64,000 nt of DNA, from the IMG/VR virus record IMGVR_UViG_3300045988_131126. One strand, 5' to 3'. A model generated the notes under the pieces. It saw only the letters and a list, made by a program, of their open reading frames with translations, did not search any database and was not told the DNA's origin. The position numbers and the translations under genes are program-made. This DNA comes from a virus. Positions 8,812 to 50,940 of the stretch are shown piece by piece. Numbering within the stretch: position 1 is the stretch's first letter; every line of letters starts with the position of its first letter.

Positions 8812-9105
8812 TCACCTCCTTTTATTCTGGACTATACTAATGCGAGTCATATGTATCATCTCGCGTAATGTCGGAATTTCAAAATCTTCATTAAAATAAG
8901 CTATTGCGGCTAATCTTGTACGTTCTATTCTTCTTGCTATAGCTCTAATATTACGGCGGTGATTGCATTTATATGCAATACTATTTACAATAGAACATTT
9001 CCATATATTATTGGATCTTGCTTTCAAAGTTTGTTTTTTCTTTTGGTACATGCGCATATTCTGATTAAATGATTTATGAGAACTCATTGATCTAACAGAC
9101 AGCAT
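8812..9105 (-). CDS. small, extremely basic protein (97 aa)
   Basis: AAAGGAGGGAAT SD. I counted 22 K+R versus 5 D+E in 97 residues. Confidence 0.8.
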   Translation of the reverse strand: MLSVRSMSSHKSFNQNMRMYQKKKQTLKARSNNIWKCSIVNSIAYKCNHRRNIRAIARRIERTRLAAIAYFNEDFEIPTLREMIHMTRISIVQNKRR

Positions 9106-9138
9106 TATTAATTCCCTCCTTTCATCAATAGAATAATA

Positions 9139-9170
9139 TACATCTATACGAAATATTTCGTATAGATGTA
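9139..9170 (-). terminator. hairpin terminator after ORF 9177..10349
   Basis: Perfect palindrome TACATCTATACGAAAT/ATTTCGTATAGATGTA. Confidence 0.65.
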
Positions 9171-9176
9171 TAAAAA

Positions 9177-10349
9177 TTATTTATTTGCTAAACTTATTGT
9201 CAATGCATAATATTTTAATATAGATTTAAAATAAGATATCTTAGTAGCTAATCTAGATTTTCTCTTTCTATAATTTGGAGAATTTTCATCTAGCCATTTC
9301 TCTATAATCTCTTTCTCTCTAATAATATTTGGGTTCTTAGTATTAGGCTTAGGAGTTATAGATTTGGCTATAAACTCAAGCCCAGTTACAGATTTATTCT
9401 CTGAATTAGCCATATACTCAGAAACCATAATTCTTAACAATTCTTTCACTTCCATTAAGTTCTGAGGATCATCTTGTATTCCTTCTATTATACTCTTTAT
9501 TTCATCTGTCTTTACATTAGCATCTTTGCATTTCTTACAAATGGACAAGTCTACTCCATGAGTAGTAATCTTATTCATAGCATTTTCTACATATCCTTCA
9601 GCCTTAATAGAATCATTCTCTGCTAATCTAAAATTATCCTGTTCGTAAGAATCACTATCATAAGATAAATAAGCATCACTATTCTGATATACATCTTTAA
9701 ATACTGCTACTATATTACCTAAGAATGATTTAATTCTTCCATGTAACTGCTGTACAATATCCGCTATATCTTCATCATCAGCGCCATCATTGCATAATTT
9801 CTTTTCATATGTATCTAACCATGTTCTACATATACTTTTTATAGCTCCGAATACAGTACCTTCTCTTTTTAAATCAAATTTTTGAGATAATACATTATTT
9901 ACTACATATTCAAGTATATGTCTTTTTGGCGGATAAATAAATTTTTGCGAATGAATAGACGGATAAAAGTTACCACTAAATGCTAAATATATAGAAGATA
10001 TTTCAGCACGTTTTCTATCGTTATGTTTTAAAAAATGTCTTATTACCATCATCTGTGTTGGTACTAATGGTACTTTCATACATCTTGGATTAAAGTTCAT
10101 ATCCCAATAATAAGTTTTACTTAATATACTTTCTACATCTTTAGGATTTATATTTAAAGTCAAAAAATAATTATTGGTGTCTTCTGCAGTAAATAATATC
10201 CTTGCTTGAGGAATTGTATCGTAAATATCTGCAGATCTTGTTTGAAAGAATTTAGACAAAAAATTAATATATTTGGTTTGATTTTTTGAAATAGCACTAG
10301 ATACTATTGGATATAGTTCTGGTACTATAATTGACGTAATTTTGGACAT
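9177..10349 (-). CDS. hypothetical protein (390 aa) immediately downstream of the tandem array
   Basis: ORF track. AAAGGTGGT SD lies inside the 3' arm of the 10354..10405 hairpin. No motif recognised. Followed by terminator 9139..9170. Confidence 0.8.
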   Translation of the reverse strand: MSKITSIIVPELYPIVSSAISKNQTKYINFLSKFFQTRSADIYDTIPQARILFTAEDTNNYFLTLNINPKDVESILSKTYYWDMNFNPRCMKVPLVPTQMMVIRHFLKHNDRKRAEISSIYLAFSGNFYPSIHSQKFIYPPKRHILEYVVNNVLSQKFDLKREGTVFGAIKSICRTWLDTYEKKLCNDGADDEDIADIVQQLHGRIKSFLGNIVAVFKDVYQNSDAYLSYDSDSYEQDNFRLAENDSIKAEGYVENAMNKITTHGVDLSICKKCKDANVKTDEIKSIIEGIQDDPQNLMEVKELLRIMVSEYMANSENKSVTGLEFIAKSITPKPNTKNPNIIREKEIIEKWLDENSPNYRKRKSRLATKISYFKSILKYYALTISLANK

Positions 10350-10353
10350 AATG

Positions 10354-10405
10354 TCTCTACCACCTTTAATGAAGTTTATTACTCCATTGTTTTCGGTGGT
10401 AGAGA
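10354..10405 (-). promoter_or_regulatory. 11-bp stem hairpin whose 3' arm (on the mRNA) contains the SD of ORF 9177..10349
   Basis: TCTCTACCACC (10354-10364) is the exact reverse complement of GGTGGTAGAGA (10395-10405), with a 30-nt loop. On the minus strand the arm GGTGGTAGAGA sits 4 nt before the ATG and includes AAAGGTGGT. Confidence 0.5.
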
Positions 10406-11543
10406 ATTTTTATTTTGAAATTATGATATTTTTATATTCTCGATTTTATTTAAACCTTGTGATATTTTTATAATTTCTGATTTTATTTTGCGACTATGAT
10501 ATTTAAATCAAAATGATTTTATTTAATTTTCCTGATGTTTTGCCCTTTTTAATTTTATTTAATCTTTATGATATATTTCCAAAAATAATTTTATTTAACT
10601 GCTACGATATTTTATAATTTCTGATTTTTATTTCTGCTTATTGATCTTTTACCAACTGTGAATCACTTAGCATATTATGATATTTATGTGTTTCTGGTTT
10701 ATTTAACTTGTTTGATGTTTTCAGTTGTCTGATTTTACTTTGATAATATGATATTTAATCTCTCTCGGTTTATTTTTAAACTATGATGTTTTTATCTATG
10801 TGATTTTATTTGAATAATATGATATATTTCGGAGATTAATTTATTCACGAAGCATGATATTTATATTAATTTGATTTATTGTTTCTACTTGATACTTTTG
10901 AGCCTTCGATTTATTCTTGTTTTATGATATTTTCAATATGATGATTTTACTTTCATCAAATGATATTTAAGTGTAATTGGTTTATTTGTATTACATGATA
11001 TTTTCGCTCAAATGAATTATTCTTTTGGAAATGATATTTTTCCGACTGTGAATCACTTTGTAAGTATGATATTTATGTGTTTCTGGTTTATTATTAAAGA
11101 ATGATGTTTATACTTTTTTAATTTTACTTCAGTAATATGATATATATACTTTGATGGTTTATTTGTATCATACGATATTTTCACCTATTTGATTTTATTT
11201 AAATCCTATGATATATTTTATTTGTTAATTTATTTTGTCGGTATGATATTTCGAGATTTCTAATTTTTTCACTATAATTGATGATTTTATAATTTATGAA
11301 TTGCTTACATTCTCTGATATTTTTATCAATATGGGTTACTCCATAAATATGATATTTAGGAATATATGGTTTATTATTGAATCGTGATGTTTAAGCTTTT
11401 TTGATTTTACTCTAACAATGTGATATTTATACGCTTTGGGTTTAATTATGTCCACTTGATATTTTGAGGTATTTAATTTGCTTAAGGACAATGATACTTT
11501 TTCGTTTTCGGCTTATTATTACCCTACGATATATCTATTTCAA

Positions 11544-11668
11544 TAATTTATTAGCGTTAGATGATATATTAGATACGCTAATTTATTGGTGTTATATGAT
11601 ACTTTTTTAAGCATAATTTTACTTTTACGATTTGATATTTAAAATCACTTGGTTTATTAAATTCTTTT
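11544..11668 (+). repeat. segmental duplication inside the array (copy 1; copy 2 lies 282 bp downstream)
   Basis: TAATTTATTAGCGTTAGATGATATATTAGATAC and TTTTAAGCATAATTTTACTTTT recur at about 11826-11951 with an offset of 282 bp (8 units). Confidence 0.8.
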
Positions 11669-11825
11669 GATATTTTTGTCGAAATAATTTACTCACTCTT
11701 TTAGATATTTATTAATATTTGGTTTATTATTATATATTGATATTTTCACAGCGATAATTTTACTTTCTTGATATGATATTTAAAATTTTATGGTTTATTT
11801 ATCCTATATGATATTTTTTACATAT

Positions 11826-11951
11826 TAATTTATTAGCGTTAGATGATATATTAGATACATTAATTTATTAGTGGAAAGTGATCCCTTTTTAAGCATAATT
11901 TTACTTTTTCGTTCTGATATTAAAAATTTCTTGGTTTTATTAAAACTATAT
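11826..11951 (+). repeat. segmental duplication inside the array (copy 2)
   Basis: See copy 1 at 11544..11668. Confidence 0.8.
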
Positions 11952-12152
11952 AATATTTTATTGTAAATAATTTATTTGGTTTCATTGATAGCTTTATTTA
12001 TTTGATTTACTTACTCTTTTAGATATTTATTAATATTTGATTTATTATCATATTTTGATATTTTTAACATGAATAATTTTACTTTTTCATTCTGATATTT
12101 AATATCTTCTGGTTTATTTATATCATATGATATTTCTTCAAGTGTAATTTAA

Positions 12153-12183
12153 ATCAGAGATAGGTAACTTACCTATCTCTGAT
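12153..12183 (-). terminator. hairpin terminator after ORF 12193..13923, at the upstream edge of the array
   Basis: ATCAGAGATAGGTA-ACT-TACCTATCTCTGAT, 9 nt after the stop codon. Confidence 0.65.
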
Positions 12184-12192
12184 ATATTTTAT

Positions 12193-13923
12193 TTATCCAT
12201 TATATTTTGGATATTCCGCTCTCTTATCTGGTTTAAATGTAAGTTCTGTTTCAAACGGTACTTCTGGTTTGATATAGTCTACATGACCGAGTCTAGAGAT
12301 TGGGAATACCATTGGCGGAAGTTCTCCATTTTCATAAATATACATTGCTTCAAATACATGCTCTACAAAAATCTTTACTGTCCATCTCTTCGCTCTTGCT
12401 GCAATCTGAGCCGGTGGAAGCATTCCTTTAATGTAGTAGCTATACGCAATGCTATTCTTGCTATAGTTTTTAGCTCTAAGAGCTTTTGCAGCCTGGTCTT
12501 TATATTCCAGGTTTTCGTTTTTACGTGTTTCATATTCCTTCCTTTCTTTATATAACTCTCCATACATAGAACCTCTATTAGATACTTTAACGAAAGACTC
12601 TCCAATCTTCCACATAAGAACTTTCAGTTTAATATTGTATGGAGGCTTAGATAAATAAGAAATTAAGGATTTCTTAGTAATAAATCCATCGTATTTATCT
12701 TCCTCTTTATTAATAGTAGCTGATTTAATCATATTATTGATCTTTCTTCTACCATTAAGTTTTGTGTACAGGTTGCTCATGATTACATGGGTGATAATAT
12801 TCTTATCGGATAAATTGATAATATAGTCAACAAAATGATCTATACTAAACGGTTCCTCCATATTAATTACACCGAGATATGTTTCGTATGTATCCATATG
12901 AAGAATTTCATCTTCAATAGATTCATATTCTACTTCTGTATCATCAATCTCTTCTCTCTGATTAAGCTGTTTATAGGAACGTAAATCTTCATCGACAATT
13001 TTTCTAGCTAATAATATAAGCTTAGATAATTCTTTATTAGGCATTTTACTGATTACATATTCCTTGATTGCATTTTCATTATATAATAGATTTTCTGCTA
13101 AAGATTTATCAATATCAATATCAAGTTCTTCGCAAGCTGCGGCGAATCCTTTGTTTCTAATATCTCTAATAGCCATTAAATCTTTAACAATATTGGTTGC
13201 TTTCTCTTTGCCTAACCATGGATTATTATTGTCATTTAATCCTGCATATGACCAGAAGTTACCTGCAGAATTAACTCCATCTACATTAAAATATGCATAT
13301 AAGCAAGAACTGATTACTGGCCCAATACCTTTGTTTCGTTTTAACCATCTAGTTACTGGATTAGTATCAGAATATGCTTCAAGCATAGCTTTGGTATTAT
13401 CTTCAATATTTCTAAGCTGTAATAAGTTCCATTTCATAATAGATACATTGTCAGGATTATCATTATTATCGTATCCCTGATTTAATGATCTTACCTGATT
13501 CTCTGTACCAATTCTGAAATCCTGAATCTGATAATAAAAATCTACTAATGATTTGACCTCGTTATAATTAAGTGTCACTACAGTTTTCTTAAGGTCTTTA
13601 GACATTTTTCCAAGACCTATAACATTCTGCTTAAGTACACCATCTTCCATTTCCGCATCAGGCTCAAACTCTTCGATATCTTCTTCTGTCGCTTTTTCAA
13701 ACTTTAACACTTTCTTTTCTTTCTTAGACTCTTCATTCTTTTCCTCTTTATCATTCTTTTTAGTAGTTCCGGAAGTCTTTGTATTCTTTTCGTTAATAAT
13801 TTCTTCAACAATTTTCAAAGATTCTAAATCTCCCATACCTATAAAATATGACCTAGCCTCCTCTAAAGTTTTCATTCTACTTCTTGTTGATAATTCTTTT
13901 CCTCTGAATAATAATTTTGTCAT
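12193..13923 (-). CDS. helix-hairpin-helix DNA-binding protein with IS110/Transposase_20-like segment
   Basis: 576 aa. AAGGAGAAAGAG SD. Acidic/K-rich N-terminal region. WLKRNKGIGPVISSCLYAYF-x13-FWSYAGL resembles the ipGIGp..A..l.aei...F.s...l.sYaGL.P signature of the IS110-family C-terminal domain. The Ser-Gly that normally follows was not seen. Confidence 0.55.
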   Translation of the reverse strand: MTKLLFRGKELSTRSRMKTLEEARSYFIGMGDLESLKIVEEIINEKNTKTSGTTKKNDKEEKNEESKKEKKVLKFEKATEEDIEEFEPDAEMEDGVLKQNVIGLGKMSKDLKKTVVTLNYNEVKSLVDFYYQIQDFRIGTENQVRSLNQGYDNNDNPDNVSIMKWNLLQLRNIEDNTKAMLEAYSDTNPVTRWLKRNKGIGPVISSCLYAYFNVDGVNSAGNFWSYAGLNDNNNPWLGKEKATNIVKDLMAIRDIRNKGFAAACEELDIDIDKSLAENLLYNENAIKEYVISKMPNKELSKLILLARKIVDEDLRSYKQLNQREEIDDTEVEYESIEDEILHMDTYETYLGVINMEEPFSIDHFVDYIINLSDKNIITHVIMSNLYTKLNGRRKINNMIKSATINKEEDKYDGFITKKSLISYLSKPPYNIKLKVLMWKIGESFVKVSNRGSMYGELYKERKEYETRKNENLEYKDQAAKALRAKNYSKNSIAYSYYIKGMLPPAQIAARAKRWTVKIFVEHVFEAMYIYENGELPPMVFPISRLGHVDYIKPEVPFETELTFKPDKRAEYPKYNG

Positions 13924-13945
13924 AACTCTTTCTCCTTAAGTATTT

Positions 13946-14155
13946 TTATTTTTTATCGTATTCGTGATATATTGGATTATACATCTTTGATTTGTCTAAT
14001 ACTTCTTGAATTCTGTCTTCAAGGTATCCATAGTCTGTTCCGTAAATTATGGCGACATTGTCTTCATCTCCCTCCTTTTCTGGATTGTCAATATTTATTT
14101 CCTTTTCTTCTAAGAAGTCCTCAAATATATCGATTATTATTTGGGCTGTATTCAT
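13946..14155 (-). CDS. small acidic protein (69 aa) ending in YNPIYHEY motif
   Basis: ATG at 14155 with AAAGGAGAAAAT SD. The longer track ORF starts at a GTG that contains that SD. Sequence is D/E-rich. Confidence 0.75.
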   Translation of the reverse strand: MNTAQIIIDIFEDFLEEKEINIDNPEKEGDEDNVAIIYGTDYGYLEDRIQEVLDKSKMYNPIYHEYDKK

Positions 14156-14272
14156 TTTATTTTCTCCTTTCTTCACATCTATAATATATATTTAAAAATG
14201 TATTTAACAATATCATAATCCGGTGTGGATCATGGTTTCTTTTTCATTTTTTGTCCTAATTCTTTTGTGAAG

Positions 14273-14304
14273 ATACCCTGTATAGGATTTCCTATACAGG
14301 GTAT
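14273..14304 (-). terminator. hairpin terminator after topoisomerase A gene
   Basis: ATACCCTGTATAGG-ATTT-CCTATACAGGGTAT. The U-tract is weak. Confidence 0.6.
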
Positions 14305-14310
14305 TCTTTC

Positions 14311-21150: not shown

Positions 21151-21186
21151 TATGATTATTCCCCTTTACGTATATTTAAAAAATAA

Positions 21187-21220
21187 AAAAGTGTAGAAGA
21201 GAATTCTCTTCTACACTTTT
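21187..21220 (-). terminator. intrinsic terminator at the low-coordinate edge of the G+C-rich island
   Basis: AAAAGTGTAGAAGAGAA/TTCTCTTCTACACTTTT. On the minus strand it is followed by TTTTTTATTTTTT. Confidence 0.8.
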
Positions 21221-21606
21221 GTTATTCTCTATTTTCAGCATAAATATATGAAATTAATTTTAATTGCGTTCTGAGATTGACCGAGTGCTCCGACTGAATG
21301 ATCTCCCTTAACGATTCAACCTTGCAGGGGCTTCTATACGCGCGCTTAAGCCCGTTGTAGCAAAGTAACCGCATTTCCATATTCATTCCCAATTGCCGAA
21401 GTCTTATCCTTCAAACAACGATCGATCTCAGAACTCACATATGTTAAAATAGACAGATGTTTGGCGTATCCTAATATCAACTTAGCTCGCAGCGGACTCT
21501 TGCATATTAAACGCATCATCATGTCCGACTACGACCACTCTCGTGACTACAAGGATAATGCAGAGATAATATCTCATCTTTTCTTGTCTACTTTAATAAT
21601 ATGTTT
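21221..21606. ncRNA. candidate structured non-coding RNA (G+C-rich ORF-free island), family and strand unknown
   Basis: No ORF of 60 aa or more, and stops in all frames. I counted 31/60 G+C at 21301-21360 and 30/60 at 21481-21540, in a genome that is otherwise visibly AT-rich. Long-range pairing GTTCTGAGATTG (21268-21279) with CGATCTCAGAAC (21422-21433). Nested helices 21328-21333/21348-21353, 21353-21358/21415-21420 and 21493-21497/21523-21527. Bracketed by hairpins 21187..21220 and 21607..21636. Confidence 0.5.
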
Positions 21607-21642: not shown

Positions 21643-22578
21643 TTATGCTTCAAGTGTTCCAGTTGCATTTACTCTTTCTACTGCTCCATTTGCAGGAACT
21701 GTTGTCTGCTGATCTGGAGTTGCTGGCTGAGCTGGTGCAGGAGCTGGCTGAGCCATCTGCTGATTCTGTGCTCCATATACCGGATAGTTCTGCTGAGGCT
21801 GTGTAGGCGCAGAATAAGTCTGCGGCATACCCATTGGCGGTACAGGCGCATTAACAATAGGAGCTGGTGCTACTCCATTAGCATAAAATGGATTTGCGTT
21901 CATATCTGGTGCTCCATATGTCATTCCACCCTGATTATTCATCATTGGTGATACAGGCTGCTGATATCCATATCCAGGATATGCTGGCTGCTGTGGCACA
22001 CCACCCATATTATACATTGGATATCCCATAGTACCACCATTTGTGATTTCTCTAAAGCTGTTGAATAATCCATTATTCTGCATATATACATCCTGTGTTG
22101 AACTTGCACTTGGAGCGAATCTGGAATAATTCTCTACAGCGATATCATAGAGTTTCGGAATCTTATCAACGAATGGTAAGATTGTGAATAACTGTCTTAC
22201 AACTGTTTCTGGAATATTTACATACATAAGTTTGCAGCATTCCATAACATTTTTAAAATCTTTTACAATCTGTTCTACTTTCTCATGAGTAAGATCATCT
22301 GGATTTAATCTTGCTCCACAGATTGTACACACCACGTCACCGGTGCCATCTTTAGTTTCTGCAATAGAGAACTTGTTTGTCCCAGGATATTTATGAGTAC
22401 AAAGACCTCTATTAATTTCCTGGCTAGTTACTTTCAGTGAGAACATAGCATCAGATTTAGTTAATTCTGCAGCTTCATCTTTTGTAAGCGGCTGAGTAAA
22501 TTTGATGTTCTGTGGCTGTACTCCATTGAAAGTCTGGCCTGCTACTGGGTTAACAAAAGTGTTGTAAAAATTAGACAT
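21643..22578 (-). CDS. hypothetical protein with Cys motif and P/Q/G/Y/M-rich low-complexity C-terminus
   Basis: ATG at 22578 (MSNFYNT...) with AAGGAGGACAAACTT SD. CTHK...CTICG pair. The last ~140 aa are Pro/Gln/Gly/Tyr/Met/Ala-rich. Confidence 0.8.
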   Translation of the reverse strand: MSNFYNTFVNPVAGQTFNGVQPQNIKFTQPLTKDEAAELTKSDAMFSLKVTSQEINRGLCTHKYPGTNKFSIAETKDGTGDVVCTICGARLNPDDLTHEKVEQIVKDFKNVMECCKLMYVNIPETVVRQLFTILPFVDKIPKLYDIAVENYSRFAPSASSTQDVYMQNNGLFNSFREITNGGTMGYPMYNMGGVPQQPAYPGYGYQQPVSPMMNNQGGMTYGAPDMNANPFYANGVAPAPIVNAPVPPMGMPQTYSAPTQPQQNYPVYGAQNQQMAQPAPAPAQPATPDQQTTVPANGAVERVNATGTLEA

Positions 22579-22689
22579 AAGTTTGTCCTCCTTAAATTTA
22601 TTATTCTTTTTTGTGAAACTACAATTATGAATTAGTTTCATCTTTTTTATTTTATTACGTCTACTACCTTTGTAGTTGGCGTAATACGT

Positions 22690-26891: not shown

Positions 26892-26920
26892 ACCAGTAAG
26901 TGCATTACGCACTTACTGGT
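26892..26920. terminator. bidirectional terminator between convergent genes
   Basis: ACCAGTAAGTGC-ATTAC-GCACTTACTGGT. It contains the stop codon of the DnaB-like gene. An A-run lies upstream. Confidence 0.7.
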
Positions 26921-28635
26921 ACACTTTCATCATGATAAATCAATTGCTTCAATTCTGGTACAACATGTATTTCCTTTTTATACTCAGGATGCATTGCCAT
27001 ATAGAAACAGTTACTTGGATCTTCATCTGCTGGCTGAGCACCATATACCGTCTCAGATTCTTCTGCATATTGTTGTAACTCTTGTTGCCTATTCTTAGCT
27101 ACGTTCGTTCCAGGTATTATAGTAGGAGTTGCCTGTAAAGTTTCTTTATAAGCAGGAACTGGCGAATATAAATCTTCTACAAGTTTTATTCTACCCTGCA
27201 TATATGGTATGCATACATATTCTAATTCTGTATATACTCTTCGTTTAATAATTTTAAATACCATATGTTCTTGCTCTTGATTTAATATTATCCCTAAATC
27301 TACATTATCCAACATAAGCATTGATTCGCCTATATTAGATTTTCCTAATAATCTCGTTAAATCTGAATTTGTCGTTCCAGCTTTACTATCAATAATTCTT
27401 GCACCATCTCTGTTAAGATGAGAGTCTGTTATAACTGGAATATCTTTAATAATTGCAAATGTCTTCATTTCATTTGCTACGTTTCCTAATTCCAGACGTA
27501 CATCTGGCTGATTCTCTATTGATCTTAATCTCTTAATATGGTCTTGAAGTAATGCTATTACTTCATAACCCTCATCCTCTAAATCCTCAGTTAAAGTATA
27601 AAGATAAGATGTATCTTCTGATCTATTTGGTTTATACTTAACTATTATATCTATCGGAGAATCATCACTCAAATATAATTCTCCCTCTCTCTTTAACTTC
27701 TCTTCAACCTCTTCTACTGTGAAGTTCTTCATGGATTCTCCAGTACATAACTCAAACATACGCTGAATTGTTTCAGTTACACTGTTTTCCATTGTCAAAT
27801 ATACAATACACGGAATCTTGGTTGGATCCTTAGCTTTAAAATTTCTATTATATTTCTTCATCTGAATCGCTATATCCAACATAGACATGGATTTACCACC
27901 ACCGGTAATTCCTAATAATAAATATAATCTTGTATTCTCAAAACCTCCACCAATCAACTTATTAAAACCTTGCATTCCAGTACATAGATACCTATAACTG
28001 CTGGTTATCTCTTCATGTATTTCTCTGATGGAGTTATCAAATAAATCTGGTCTTAAACTAAAAGTCTTCTCTAAAGACGAATCTCTTCTAGCTTGTCTAA
28101 ACTTATTACAAAGATCAAAATTTTCAGCTTGTATCTGTGCTGATAATTCTGATATACGTGTAGAATCTGCTGTTAAAAATTGTGTATACAATTCTATCAT
28201 TCTTTGAGCTGAATCGTATATAAACGTAGACGATAATGTATTGGATATGGTTTCATTGATCCATTCCATCTCCGGATTAGACAAATCCGTAAAATTTTCC
28301 ATATCTATAATATCATCATCAATAATACCACCATTTATGTATTTTACTATTGCTATAGGATTAGATAGTCCTTTTACAATCTTTGCTTCCAATCCTCTCT
28401 TAATAAACGTAATCCTTTTTAACTTTTCTGGATCATTTGCATATTTAGACATGTCCAACATGTCCATTACATTTCTTAGATTTATATAATGTCCTCTTCT
28501 AATATTTCTATTTTCCGAAAGGACATAAGCACACATTAAATTTAAACTATGTATATCAAAAGATATAGGTAATTTTGTCTTGGTTTTGACATTTTTATGA
28601 CTACCATTATATCTAACTCTATTTTTTAACTCCAT
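26905..28635 (-). CDS. DnaB-family replicative DNA helicase
   Basis: 576 aa. Walker A LLLGITGGGKSMS, a DnaB-like SHLNRDG (SQLNR) motif, and LLQDHIKRL in the Walker B region. Confidence 0.8.
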   Translation of the reverse strand: MELKNRVRYNGSHKNVKTKTKLPISFDIHSLNLMCAYVLSENRNIRRGHYINLRNVMDMLDMSKYANDPEKLKRITFIKRGLEAKIVKGLSNPIAIVKYINGGIIDDDIIDMENFTDLSNPEMEWINETISNTLSSTFIYDSAQRMIELYTQFLTADSTRISELSAQIQAENFDLCNKFRQARRDSSLEKTFSLRPDLFDNSIREIHEEITSSYRYLCTGMQGFNKLIGGGFENTRLYLLLGITGGGKSMSMLDIAIQMKKYNRNFKAKDPTKIPCIVYLTMENSVTETIQRMFELCTGESMKNFTVEEVEEKLKREGELYLSDDSPIDIIVKYKPNRSEDTSYLYTLTEDLEDEGYEVIALLQDHIKRLRSIENQPDVRLELGNVANEMKTFAIIKDIPVITDSHLNRDGARIIDSKAGTTNSDLTRLLGKSNIGESMLMLDNVDLGIILNQEQEHMVFKIIKRRVYTELEYVCIPYMQGRIKLVEDLYSPVPAYKETLQATPTIIPGTNVAKNRQQELQQYAEESETVYGAQPADEDPSNCFYMAMHPEYKKEIHVVPELKQLIYHDESVPVSA

Positions 28636-47447: not shown

Positions 47448-48992
47448 TTAGTTACTTTTACTCATTTTCTGTAACTGCACTAATTCATCTGCAGTATATA
47501 ATTTTCTTCCTAACGATACAAATGTATTAGTATTAATTATGACATCTCGCTGATGATTCAACCTATTATCAAACGATCCATCATTCCTACTAATATACAT
47601 ACTCTTCGCAGGATTAAATACTCTATTTGCTGCACGATAAAATTCATCATTTATAATATACCAAATATTCAATGTATCACCGTCAAAGTCAGCACCCAAT
47701 GATACAAGGACACCGAGAGGTAATTCCATAGTATAGGAATATGTTATACCTACACAATACATCTGTAATATAGATCCATAGTTAATGGTTGGGTTTCTAT
47801 TAATAATAATAGGAATACCTTTCCCGCTCTTATGTTTCTTGATCATACTTTCAATGATTCTTACGATTAATGGATCTGTATTTATCTTTGCTGCATACCA
47901 TCTATTGTATGCATCCTGAGAAGATAAATTATATGATTTCTTAAGAATATTGATAATGGAAGCATGTAATAATTCCACTAAAGAATTATAGCTAAGTAAT
48001 ACTTGATCGTTTCTTAATTTCGGATTAGATACAATTACACATCTACCTGTAAAGTTATATCTACCAGCAAATAAAGATCTAATTGTACCTTTCTTACCTT
48101 CACAAATTGTAACGATATTATCATATAATTTCATGAATTCTACTTGAATATCGTATAATAATTGTGCTGTAGGTTTAATCTTCTTATTAGAATTAAACTT
48201 AGATTTGGCAAAGTTTAATTCAGATACTAACTTATTAATCTTAGTATAAATAGCATTAGATTCTTCAAAATAGAATGATTCTTTATCTTCATTGAATGGT
48301 CTAAGCATTGTACTGAATACAGGAATAGATTGAGTAAATACTTTATCTCTATTCTCCATAATATTCTTATAATACTCGATTTTATTTGGAAATTTTGCTT
48401 TATAATAATCCATAATCTCATCAAACCTATTATGGAATTCTACCATACCAATTCCATAGAATGGTTGATCTTCGTTCTCGATTATATGGATATGTCCATC
48501 TTCATCAATCTGAGCATCATATTTGATAATACTATCTAATTCTGTTTTACCTATTAAGAATTCAATAGATTTAAATAGATTACAATGTATAACAAAAAAA
48601 TCGTCAGATTGGATTACTATCCAACCTGTGTATCTGGGATTTGTTTCTACATTCTCTACTTTCTGTCCGCAGAATTTACATTTTAATCCAAGATTAATCT
48701 TGGATCTTGTCATTCCACATTTACATCTAAATGTATTCTGGAATTGATCTTGATCAGAAAGATTGTTTCCATATTTAGATGAAAATATAGAATGATCATC
48801 TTTAAGATCTTTTTTGATTCCATTTGTGGGAGATACAATAAATCCGTTACCAGATCTAATGTCTTGCACTCTCTCTTCGTCGAAATTGATTCTTTCCAAT
48901 TCCGTTGTGAATATCCAGTCTGGATTATGCGGATATGAATAAGTAAAATCCAATCCAACCCTTCCATCTGGAAGTTTCTTTAGACATTTCAT
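47448..48992 (-). CDS. multisubunit RNA polymerase beta-prime, N-terminal fragment (through the catalytic NADFDGD loop)
   Basis: Zn-ribbon CKCG...CKFCG, IPVFSTMLRP (LPV.PP.LRP), GKKGTIRSLFAGRYNFTGRCVIV ([23 protein letters not shown]), INRNPTINYGSI (LNRAPTLHR), GADFDGD encoded at 47676-47696. Confidence 0.9.
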   Translation of the reverse strand: MKCLKKLPDGRVGLDFTYSYPHNPDWIFTTELERINFDEERVQDIRSGNGFIVSPTNGIKKDLKDDHSIFSSKYGNNLSDQDQFQNTFRCKCGMTRSKINLGLKCKFCGQKVENVETNPRYTGWIVIQSDDFFVIHCNLFKSIEFLIGKTELDSIIKYDAQIDEDGHIHIIENEDQPFYGIGMVEFHNRFDEIMDYYKAKFPNKIEYYKNIMENRDKVFTQSIPVFSTMLRPFNEDKESFYFEESNAIYTKINKLVSELNFAKSKFNSNKKIKPTAQLLYDIQVEFMKLYDNIVTICEGKKGTIRSLFAGRYNFTGRCVIVSNPKLRNDQVLLSYNSLVELLHASIINILKKSYNLSSQDAYNRWYAAKINTDPLIVRIIESMIKKHKSGKGIPIIINRNPTINYGSILQMYCVGITYSYTMELPLGVLVSLGADFDGDTLNIWYIINDEFYRAANRVFNPAKSMYISRNDGSFDNRLNHQRDVIINTNTFVSLGRKLYTADELVQLQKMSKSN

Positions 48993-49695: not shown

Positions 49696-50940
49696 TTATT
49701 TATCCTCCCATTCTCCGAATACTGTATCAAGTGGTATTTCAGTTAACTGCTCTGTGGAATCGTGGAAAGACTTCATTGATATATTTTTCAAAGTAGAAGG
49801 AATTTTAGATTCTGTTATACCAGCATTCTTTATACCTATTCTGTATAACATATTACCTGCACACTTATTACATATACCTGTCTTAGATTCACACATAGAA
49901 GCAAATCTGAACTTGACAACTTTATTTAAATAGTTATCTACATTTTCAGATGTCAATTCTACAAGCTTGCCTTTATCGACTATATAAGAATACATCCAAA
50001 ATGATACATTCTTTTTGGTTAAATGAACTTCTACTGTATCTTTTGTATGACAATCTGATCCAGGAGCATCTAACGTGACATGCTGTAGTGTATATACAAA
50101 TAACTTTTCCCAATAACCACCATCGGCAGTTTTTCTTGCTCGTTTAAATGGACCAGCAGCTAATGAGTTAGCTATCAATGAATATTCATCTGCTTTGATT
50201 CCGTCTATATAGTTGGATGTAGCAAATTTGTATTTCTGTTTAGCATAAGGATCAGGATCTTTAATAACTCCTTTTACAACGAATATATTCTTAAAGTTAT
50301 TACCTACAGATCCTCTAGCACCAGAATTATATACATCCATAGACGGATCGTCTCCCATATAATCTAATGCATACTGTAATAATTCCTTCTCGACTTTATT
50401 ACCTACAACTTCATCCCCTCTGTCTAATGCTTCTTTATTTTTTGCTAAAAGTTCTTCTTTCTTTTTCTTAATAGCATCACTACAAGTAAGCATTTTATCA
50501 GTATAATTAGGAGCAAGTATAGTTACATAAGGCATTATCTTTTGTGTCTTATTTAAATAATGCTTTAAATAATCAAGCTGTATTTTATCTTCCAATAAAG
50601 CATAAGATAATTTCTTATTAATATCTCCAAATAAATCATCATCTACAGACTTATTTATATAATGAAATAAATCGAATAATTCATTTTCAAAAAAGAATTT
50701 ATTATATATAAATAAACCTACTGTAGTAGTAAATGAATTTTTGTTTTTCTTTTGCGGATTTGGACCGTAAGAATTTGCAGGAATAGTGACTATATCATAC
50801 GGATTATATTTTCTTTTTCCATCAAATTCTCCAAAAGTCTCCATTATAAAAGATAGAGTTATATCTTCTTCTTTTAAATCAACCAGGGCTTTTATTTCAT
50901 CTGGATTAGTGATCATTTTTGATTTACGTTTACTAGCCAT
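49696..50940 (-). CDS. multisubunit RNA polymerase beta-prime, middle fragment (region F/bridge helix to start of trigger loop)
   Basis: TTTVGLFIYN (TTVGR.I.N), NSGARGSVGN (DSGARGS), the bridge-helix-like segment NSLAAGPFKRARKTADGGYWEKLF, GSDCHT (DDCGT), and CESKTGICNKCAG (C....G.C..CYG). Confidence 0.88.
   Translation of the reverse strand: MASKRKSKMITNPDEIKALVDLKEEDITLSFIMETFGEFDGKRKYNPYDIVTIPANSYGPNPQKKNKNSFTTTVGLFIYNKFFFENELFDLFHYINKSVDDDLFGDINKKLSYALLEDKIQLDYLKHYLNKTQKIMPYVTILAPNYTDKMLTCSDAIKKKKEELLAKNKEALDRGDEVVGNKVEKELLQYALDYMGDDPSMDVYNSGARGSVGNNFKNIFVVKGVIKDPDPYAKQKYKFATSNYIDGIKADEYSLIANSLAAGPFKRARKTADGGYWEKLFVYTLQHVTLDAPGSDCHTKDTVEVHLTKKNVSFWMYSYIVDKGKLVELTSENVDNYLNKVVKFRFASMCESKTGICNKCAGNMLYRIGIKNAGITESKIPSTLKNISMKSFHDSTEQLTEIPLDTVFGEWEDK

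Follow-up and report, generated by a model that had tools for sequence, protein, structure and literature searches.

The locus

The window analysed here is the whole 64,000-nucleotide stretch taken, as one strand, from the IMG/VR virus record IMGVR_UViG_3300045988_131126. It contains a long non-coding repeat array beside a gene for a Nop-domain protein. Together these very probably form an array of the TIGR kind (for tandem interspaced guide RNA) with its tas gene, i.e. a TIGR-Tas locus, which is a known kind of system and not a new one. The features that carry this assignment are as follows.

10405..12154, minus strand: predicted dual-repeat TIGR array of 49 units (autocorrelation, position logos, automated parse, comparison with published arrays and guide RNAs, termed tigRNAs)
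12135..12128 (unit 1) to 10431..10424 (unit 49), minus strand: loop repeats
12154..12145 (start) and 10414..10405 (end), minus strand: degenerate edge-type repeats at the array ends
12193..13923, minus strand: tas gene, 576 residues, predicted TIGR-associated Nop-domain protein of TasA type (NCBIfam, PDB sequence match, Foldseek)

Periodicity and unit anatomy of the array

The open reading frames (ORFs) 9177..10349 and 12193..13923, both on the minus strand, are separated by 1843 bp in which the longest internal ORF is 51 residues. A first-pass annotation of the window had described this region as a gap of about 1.84 kb without an ORF of 60 residues or more, filled with about 49 phased bipartite units in one orientation, and the description held throughout. 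The autocorrelation that it proposed as a check was calculated on base identity for 10406..12152. Peaks were found only at lags 35/36, 71, 106 and 141/142, with z = 10.1, 9.4, 8.2 and 6.3 at lags 35, 71, 106 and 141/142, respectively, relative to 200 shuffles. Periods of 35/36, 71 and 141 were also returned by Tandem Repeats Finder. The 49 copies of the first repeat (box A of the first-pass annotation), placed by regular expression and by hand, run from 10425 to 12129 at intervals of 35–37 bp, and 49 units were likewise recovered by an independent automated parse of the opposite strand.

The two boxes described earlier were accurate and were refined by position logos to a layout of 8 + 9 + 9/10 + 9 nt. 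On the plus strand the unit reads TGATATTT (8 nt), N9, T[G/A][A/G]TTT(T)A[T/C]T (9 or 10 nt), N9. Read on the minus strand it consists of an edge repeat A[A/G]UAAA(A)[U/C][U/C]A (9–10 nt), spacer A (9 nt), a loop repeat AAAUAUCA (8 nt) and spacer B (9 nt). The alternation between 35 and 36 bp and the higher-order period of 71 bp arise because the second repeat is either 9 or 10 nt long.

An independent metagenome contig (ENA ERZ1673741, locus L001) has a gap of the same length, 1843 bp, with two mismatches to the window; the array is therefore not an assembly artefact, a possibility that the first-pass annotation had raised. The minus-strand units were also considered as tandem sigma-70-like promoters, with TATCAT as the −10 element. 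This candidate was rejected: the upstream box is unlike a −35 element, and the Tas match described below then explained the array.

The Tas protein

The product of 12193..13923, an anonymous ORF in the first-pass annotation, in fact matches the NCBIfam model NF052498.1 (TIGR_Tas_endo, titled 'TIGR-Tas system RNA-guided endonuclease') with an E value of 8.7e-39 and 133.7 bits, the curated cut-off being 100. The same model is matched by all 38 members of its clade. Pfam gave no match for this product. A sequence match to PDB chain 9mty_A (E = 1.2e-6) covers the ...GIGPV...YAG... and GHVDYIKP motifs; judging by the equal length of 331 residues, this chain is apparently the TasR of Faure et al. 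(Science 2025, PMC12045711). Modelling with AlphaFold2 from 38 homologues gave a structure with a predicted local distance difference test score (pLDDT) of 85. The best PDB matches to this model in Foldseek were the TasH–tigRNA complexes 9w04, 21kl and 9w03, determined by electron cryo-microscopy (probability 1.00, target template-modelling scores 0.58–0.69, only the Nop part being covered), followed by IS621 and ISCro4.

The protein is laid out as an N-terminal domain (residues 1–50), a disordered Lys/Glu-rich linker (51–104), a Nop core and a C-terminal LGHVDYI loop. The core carries a helical insertion of approximately 188 residues (about 237–428) between the PWLG and PPYN motifs, compared with about 14 residues in 9mty_A; across the clade the insertion varies from 69 to 244 residues. 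The processing histidine, H547 in the LGH motif, aligns with H296 of SpTasH and is invariant.

HNH and RuvC Pfam domains were found neither in Tas nor in any of the 38 clade members, and neither His nor Cys occurs in the N-terminal 50 residues. The N-terminal HNH or RuvC domain by which the TasH and TasR subtypes are defined was thus not detected. For these reasons, and because the fold matches cover only the Nop part, the protein is assigned to the TasA type, predicted to lack a recognizable nuclease domain, although the NCBIfam name says 'endonuclease'. The other 576-residue ORF in the window (26905..28635) was also considered; it is unrelated to Tas and resembles a helicase of DnaB/RecA type.

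Comparison with known systems

TIGR arrays are defined by two distinct alternating repeats of 8–12 nt, termed edge and loop, by 9-nt spacers and by units and tigRNAs of 36 nt (Faure et al., Science 2025, PMC12045711). The array in the window has repeats of 8 and 9–10 nt, two 9-nt spacers per unit and units of 35–37 bp, and it adjoins the gene for a Nop-type RNA-binding protein recognized by NF052498.1, Foldseek and 9mty_A. It was placed with the TIGR arrays because of this adjacent Tas gene, the TasH–tigRNA fold matches and the dual-repeat anatomy of the unit. The first-pass conclusion that the array belongs to no known type is thereby superseded: dual-repeat arrays of this kind have been published and the neighbouring gene encodes their partner protein. 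The same annotation had proposed, among other possibilities, a minus-strand repetitive RNA carrying AAAUAUCA and AAAUAAAAUC that acts as a protein sponge. The strand, the RNA and the protein binding agree with the present assignment; the sponge is replaced by a probable array of guide RNAs.

The closest resemblance is to the published dual-repeat systems (PMC12045711), especially FpTasA and SpTasH. Shared characters are a Nop-domain Tas beside a two-repeat array with 35–36-nt units, an array downstream of tas, probably on the same strand, terminal edge repeats that are degenerate, as in published cases (PMC12045711), repeats with a purine-rich dinucleotide at the 5' end and a YYA trinucleotide at the 3' end as candidate boxes, and retention of the LGH processing histidine. 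The SpTasH locus of Salicola phage CGphi29 also shares a phage host and a hairpin separating the tas stop codon from the array. In other respects the locus in the window differs. It has 49 units, whereas published arrays have 'most often 5 to 15', with a mean of about 16 units per dual-repeat array (65,635/4,126). Its boxes are AU-rich (AA/AG ... UCA/CCA/UUA) and its loop repeat has 8 nt. Dual-repeat Tas proteins have been described as compact with minimal variation; the one found here has 576 residues, with an N-terminal extension and the approximately 188-residue Nop insertion, and has Phe at the position of the catalytic Tyr. The 3' end of the array is a predicted structure that would sequester a Shine–Dalgarno sequence, without a U-tract terminator.

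Like clustered regularly interspaced short palindromic repeat (CRISPR) arrays, TIGR arrays are tandem repeat–spacer arrays whose precursor is cut into single guides, and strain variation lies mostly at one end. Unlike them, TIGR arrays combine two types of short repeat with two 9-nt spacers in each unit, the spacers pairing with opposite strands of the DNA, and they lack cas genes, a protospacer-adjacent motif (PAM) and a known adaptation module. Variation in the array studied here resembles duplication and deletion of whole units with point changes, not acquisition of foreign spacers. CRISPR–Cas systems have identical repeats of 25–36 nt, spacers of similar size and cas genes; the window has two kinds of repeat of 8–10 nt and 9-nt spacers, and no Cas family was found among the scanned neighbour genes. 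The first-pass annotation had also set CRISPR aside on the repeat and spacer lengths; its argument from the lack of cas genes is beside the point, as TIGR systems use Tas.

Two further families of RNA-guided systems were compared. Small (nucleolar) RNAs of the box C/D class with Nop5 or Nop56/58 differ in that the locus has no kink-turn/L7Ae module and no fibrillarin partner. The IS110-family recombinases IS621 and ISCro4, which use bridge RNAs, are also returned by Foldseek, and matches to Pfam Transposase_20 and to NCBIfam transpos_IS110 occur in some clade members; neither a DEDD/RuvC transposase domain nor transposon ends were found here. In contrast to both families, TIGR guides lie in a long regular array, and the targets of the characterized TIGR systems are DNA.

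Alternatively, as the first-pass annotation had proposed, the array might act as DNA, either as a platform with many copies of a protein-binding site (a centromere, origin or packaging organizer) or as a T5-like injection pause. Its many phased short motifs, all in one orientation within a non-coding block, would suit such a function, as would its place in a replication module beside gyrA and gyrB, and some TasA loci are operonic with ParB-like genes (Faure et al., PMC12045711). However, the adjacent gene encodes an RNA-binding Nop-domain Tas protein, and the 8 + 9 + 9/10 + 9 nt layout matches guide arrays unit by unit. No ParA, ParB, Rep or terminase-like gene was found among the scanned neighbours and no iteron-type or dyad-symmetric site is evident in the unit. 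No evidence for a DNA-level function of either kind emerged, and we consider it very improbable.

Database searches gave no close relative among GenBank phages. Megablast of 9000..14000 against GenBank phages gave no match, and tblastn with Tas gave only weak matches in S-TIM5-like cyanophages (27% identity over a quarter of the protein). At gathering thresholds, Rfam matched no family in any part of the window. Peptide and repeat strings of the locus were not found in the portion of the supplementary files of Faure et al. that was searched, which says little.

Probable coding strand and assignment of edge and loop repeats

The array is assigned with good confidence to the minus strand, which is also the tas strand, on the basis of its repeat ends and its relatives. 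Read in this sense, A-A or A-G opens both repeats and UCA, CCA or UUA closes them. In published arrays box D (AG or UG) stands at the 5' end of each repeat and box C (CCA or CCN) at the 3' end. Published repeats, read in the experimentally verified sense, are AGUGUACC(N) and AGUAACCC(N) for FpTasA of Flavonifractor plautii, AAGACAACCA and AAGCGAGCCA for SpTasH of Salicola phage CGphi29, and UGCG|AGCCA and UGAAACCCA for TaTasR. The minus-strand repeat ends thus resemble box D and box C, as AU-rich, non-canonical candidate motifs.

The position of the array agrees with this sense. According to the entries available in Table S1, the FpTasA and SpTasH arrays continue from the tas 3' end on the same strand, and the TaTasR array is likewise downstream of its ORF. 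Among the relatives, L009 (Tas 46% identical) carries units of AAATATCA and AATAAATCA downstream of tas in the tas sense, and in L007 and L008 arrays in the tas sense flank the gene on either side and end in hairpins followed by T6–T9 runs.

Two structures flanking the array also bear on its orientation.

12153..12183, minus strand: perfect hairpin of 12–14 bp that separates the tas stop codon from the first array repeat (fold −20.1 kcal/mol, z −5.5)
10354..10404, minus strand: nested stem-loop directly 3' of the last array repeat (fold −25.7 kcal/mol, z −6.9)

The same TIGR array could in principle be transcribed from the plus strand, convergent with tas, with UGAUAUUU and U[G/A][A/G]UUU(U)A[U/C]U as its repeats and 12153..12183 as its terminator. 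Both repeats would then begin with UG(A), like the 'UG' of the TaTasR box D; a terminator scan calls the hairpin at 12153..12183 a plus-strand terminator with the tail ATATTTTATT; and the GC skew of the array is positive on the plus strand, unlike that of the surrounding minus-strand genes. However, the plus-strand repeats end in AUU or UUU, and nothing in them resembles a CCA or CCN box C, whereas the minus-strand repeats end in UCA, CCA and UUA. The scan makes an identical call for the hairpin behind the minus-strand gyrA stop codon, so that the call is uninformative and reflects the T-rich plus strand rather than function. The tas-sense arrays of the relatives, with their hairpins and T runs, and the published arrays in the accessible entries (FpTasA and SpTasH on the tas strand, TaTasR downstream of its ORF) also speak against a plus-strand transcript, as does the stem-loop beyond the last array repeat, which is better paired on the minus strand: its inner stem needs a G–U pair where the plus strand has an A–C mismatch. 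A plus-strand sense is accordingly judged improbable, and minus-strand sense is used in what follows.

The longer repeat was taken as the edge repeat because degenerate copies of it stand at the array start and end and because its gap ends are complementary. In TIGRFinder, the edge repeat is the one in which the terminal bases of the inter-box gap pair; these bases are U...A in UAAA(A) and A...A in the loop gap. In minus-strand sense, spacer B opens with U in 29 of the 49 units and has A as its second base in 33, which corresponds to the 'often ending in AT' of the first-pass annotation. The loop-repeat box C may reach into what is nominally spacer B, or the dinucleotide may be common to the targets. 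Semi-conserved spacer positions also occur in the SpTasH array.

Relatives and array dynamics

Array and neighbours also occur together in related contigs, with varying copy number, a point that the first-pass annotation had proposed to check. The conserved order is gyrA, tas, array and a gene for a 390-residue protein, and copy number ranges from about 7 to 49 units, as follows.

L005: about 7 units
L009: about 14 units
L002: roughly 30 units (estimated from the gap length)
L011: 40 units
L012: contig ends after about 2 units, the array beginning at window unit 10
Window and L001: 49 units

No spacer pairs are common to the window and the loci with Tas about 50% identical. L011, with a Tas 99% identical, lacks exactly units 1–9 (319 bp) at the tas-proximal end, and the short tail of L012 from unit 10 is consistent with the same deletion. 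An insertion or deletion of three units near the tas-proximal end separates L002 from L003 and L004, which have identical Tas. Within the window array, paralogous blocks of units at offsets of 4, 8, 9 and 11 units have 74–84% identity, and unit pairs with 6/18 or fewer spacer mismatches number 10 (2.7 expected). The blocks appear to be old segmental duplications, which suggests duplication and divergence as a source of new guides.

Spacers change faster than repeats. Of the 28 differences that separate the window from L011, 22 are in spacers, although spacers make up only half of the positions (one-sided binomial p of about 0.002), and 27 fall in the tas-proximal 560 nt. It follows that the repeats are constrained, that the spacers drift or are retargeted and that change is polar. 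In the comparison with L001 the array gap has 2/1843 mismatches and the flanks have 76/5307. Purifying selection on the spacers was considered on account of this near-identity and was dropped, as L011 shows an ordinary array divergence of 1.4%. Recent shared ancestry or recombination is the more likely explanation for L001, because the divergence in L011 is concentrated in the spacers of the proximal part.

Points against the assignment and possible decay of the locus

Several observations weigh against the assignment as a functional minus-strand TIGR-Tas locus. The boxes AA/AG and UCA/CCA/UUA are not the canonical UG/AG and CCA/CCN; being AU-rich variants, they leave the strand assignment to rest on resemblance and on the relatives. 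The 8-nt loop repeat leaves an inter-box gap of 3 nt, compared with about 4 in published arrays, and the hairpin at the array 3' end has no U-tract on the minus strand. The loop repeat deviates from its consensus by at least 1 nt in 25 of the 49 copies and by at least 2 nt in four. In the target search described below, no target with two or fewer mismatches rose above the controls in 64 kb of phage sequence or 61 kb of related loci. Phe540, seven residues before H547, aligns with the catalytic Y289 of SpTasH, so that autonomous processing may be impaired or differ. Finally, a cryptic enzymatic activity is conceivable in the N-terminal 50-residue domain or in the approximately 188-residue insertion.

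Some of these points would also be expected if the locus were decaying or non-canonical, with an array processed poorly or not at all by its own Tas. In that case the transcript might serve as a long RNA with many Tas-binding sites or need a host RNase, and part of the units would be dead. The position of the Y289/H296 dyad occupied by Phe540 is Tyr in 36 of the 38 clade members, Phe occurring in the window lineage only, and besides the imperfect loop repeats several units are strongly degenerate (plus-strand units 7, 18, 25, 26 and 42 among them). Against decay, Phe540 is fixed in all of the relatives with Tas 86–99% identical (P0001–P0007), which retain long arrays; repeats change less than spacers between strains; and the nearly invariant Tyr550 nearby could replace the lost Tyr. 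A decaying locus is on balance unlikely. The Phe540 lineage also has the longest arrays found here, 40–49 units.

Flanking structures, neighbouring genes and phage context

The remaining features of the locus and of the window are listed below.

9177..10349, minus strand: gene for a 390-residue protein (phrog_2921), syntenic neighbour of the array
47448..48992 and 49696..50940, minus strand: split RNA polymerase β' genes (about 28% identity to phiR1-37, AR9/PBS1 and Staphylococcus jumbo phages)
21180..21600, minus strand: non-coding region of about 400 nt between ORF 21643..22641 (minus strand) and gyrB

The hairpin at 12153..12183 probably serves as a gene end or an attenuator. Hairpins of different sequence occupy the same site in L002, L005 and L009, and the published Salicola phage TasH locus also has one between the tas stop codon and the array. 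At 14272..14305, behind the gyrA stop codon, lies a comparable hairpin that has no U-tract. The minus-strand tas and gyrA stop codons are thus both followed by long perfect hairpins lacking a coding-strand U-tract, which suggests that the phage uses unconventional gene-end elements.

The 3' arm of the stem-loop at 10354..10404 (GGUGGUAGAGA) covers the Shine–Dalgarno sequence of the 390-residue gene, the start codon of which is at 10349. Its outer stem is kept in L002, L005 and L009 despite sequence changes, via U–G pairs. The structure may mark the array end, control translation of the next gene or both, and it may couple this translation to transcription or processing of the array. The 390-residue protein is 75% identical between the window and L009, compared with only 46% for Tas; its gene does not adjoin tas in L007 and L008, and the protein has no Pfam, NCBIfam or PDB match. 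It is probably a core phage gene rather than a component of the system.

The phage has a GC content of 28% and encodes GyrA and GyrB. Its split RNA polymerase β' genes place it, as a member not described before, among the jumbo phages with a multisubunit RNA polymerase of their own. In every related contig that reaches beyond tas (L001, L002 and L006–L012), gyrA and/or gyrB is the immediate neighbour of tas; the contig of L005 starts with tas itself. The adjacency may be simple synteny within the phage family or may point to a functional link. One speculation is that negative supercoiling should favour the PAM-less melting of two strands needed for TIGR targeting.

The non-coding region at 21180..21600 has 40–45% GC in this 28% GC genome, folds with −127.9 kcal/mol (z −5.7) and ends in a terminator with a strong hairpin and a T-run near 21186..21225. 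Rfam gave no match to it at the gathering score, only matches with chance-level E values. It is a candidate structured non-coding RNA of the phage.

Proposed mechanism and target search

From the anatomy of the array and from published systems we infer the following course of events. The array would be transcribed from the minus strand into a long A-rich precursor, either jointly with tas or immediately downstream of the gene. Tas dimers would bind each unit through box D (5' A-R) and box C (Y-Y-A 3'), which bracket both repeats. Cleavage inside the 9–10-nt edge repeats would release up to 49 tigRNAs of 35–36 nt, each consisting of the 3' half of an edge repeat, spacer A (9 nt), AAAUAUCA, spacer B (9 nt) and the 5' half of the next edge repeat. 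Spacer A is expected to pair with one strand of the DNA and spacer B, in the neighbouring 9 bp, with the other strand, so that both spacers would define an 18-bp site, 5'-[spacer A][reverse complement of spacer B]-3'. This geometry is taken from the published TaTasR tigRNA1 and its target. For example, the predicted targets of units 32 and 43 would be formed in this way from the spacer pairs CAGTCGGAA + TTTTGGAAA and CAGTTGGTA + TCTGCTTAT, respectively.

The most likely outcome would be sequence-specific DNA binding that blocks transcription or replication, rather than cleavage. Binding and repression are favoured over cleavage because no nuclease domain was detected in Tas. Another TasA has been shown experimentally to be an RNA-guided repressor, and binding and blocking have also been reported for catalytically dead TasR proteins (preprint 10.64898/2026.09.09.750476).

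Targets were sought with the 18-mers of this geometry from all 49 units, on both strands of the window outside the array and in 61 kb of related loci. Matches with 2–4 mismatches were no commoner than for three control geometries. In the reverse test, the guides of the relatives had no targets in the window. The targets are therefore expected elsewhere and could lie in host DNA, in competing mobile elements or in the part of the phage genome outside the window.

A joint reading of these results, which we put forward as tentative and rather doubtful, is that this jumbo-phage lineage shows how TIGR arrays diversify without adaptation machinery, through tas-proximal duplication or deletion of several units, the guides then being retargeted by point changes and gene conversion concentrated in the spacers. 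The enlarged TasA, with its approximately 188-residue insertion and its catalytic Tyr lost, would use about 49 guides as a multi-site programme of DNA binding and repression against host or rival DNA, perhaps helped by the neighbouring phage gyrase.

Significance

For annotation, the locus suggests that long AT-rich repeat deserts with a period of 35–36 bp should be checked for a neighbouring gene of the Nop-domain (Tas) family before novelty is claimed. TIGR-Tas systems were described only in 2025, and their natural targets, their role and the way in which guides are gained are still open questions. The locus offers a natural case study, with an unusually long array in a large phage and both near-identical and distant variants in public assemblies. 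As these variants differ by insertions and deletions of whole units at one end and by spacer-biased substitutions, they may serve as a model for the evolution of TIGR arrays.

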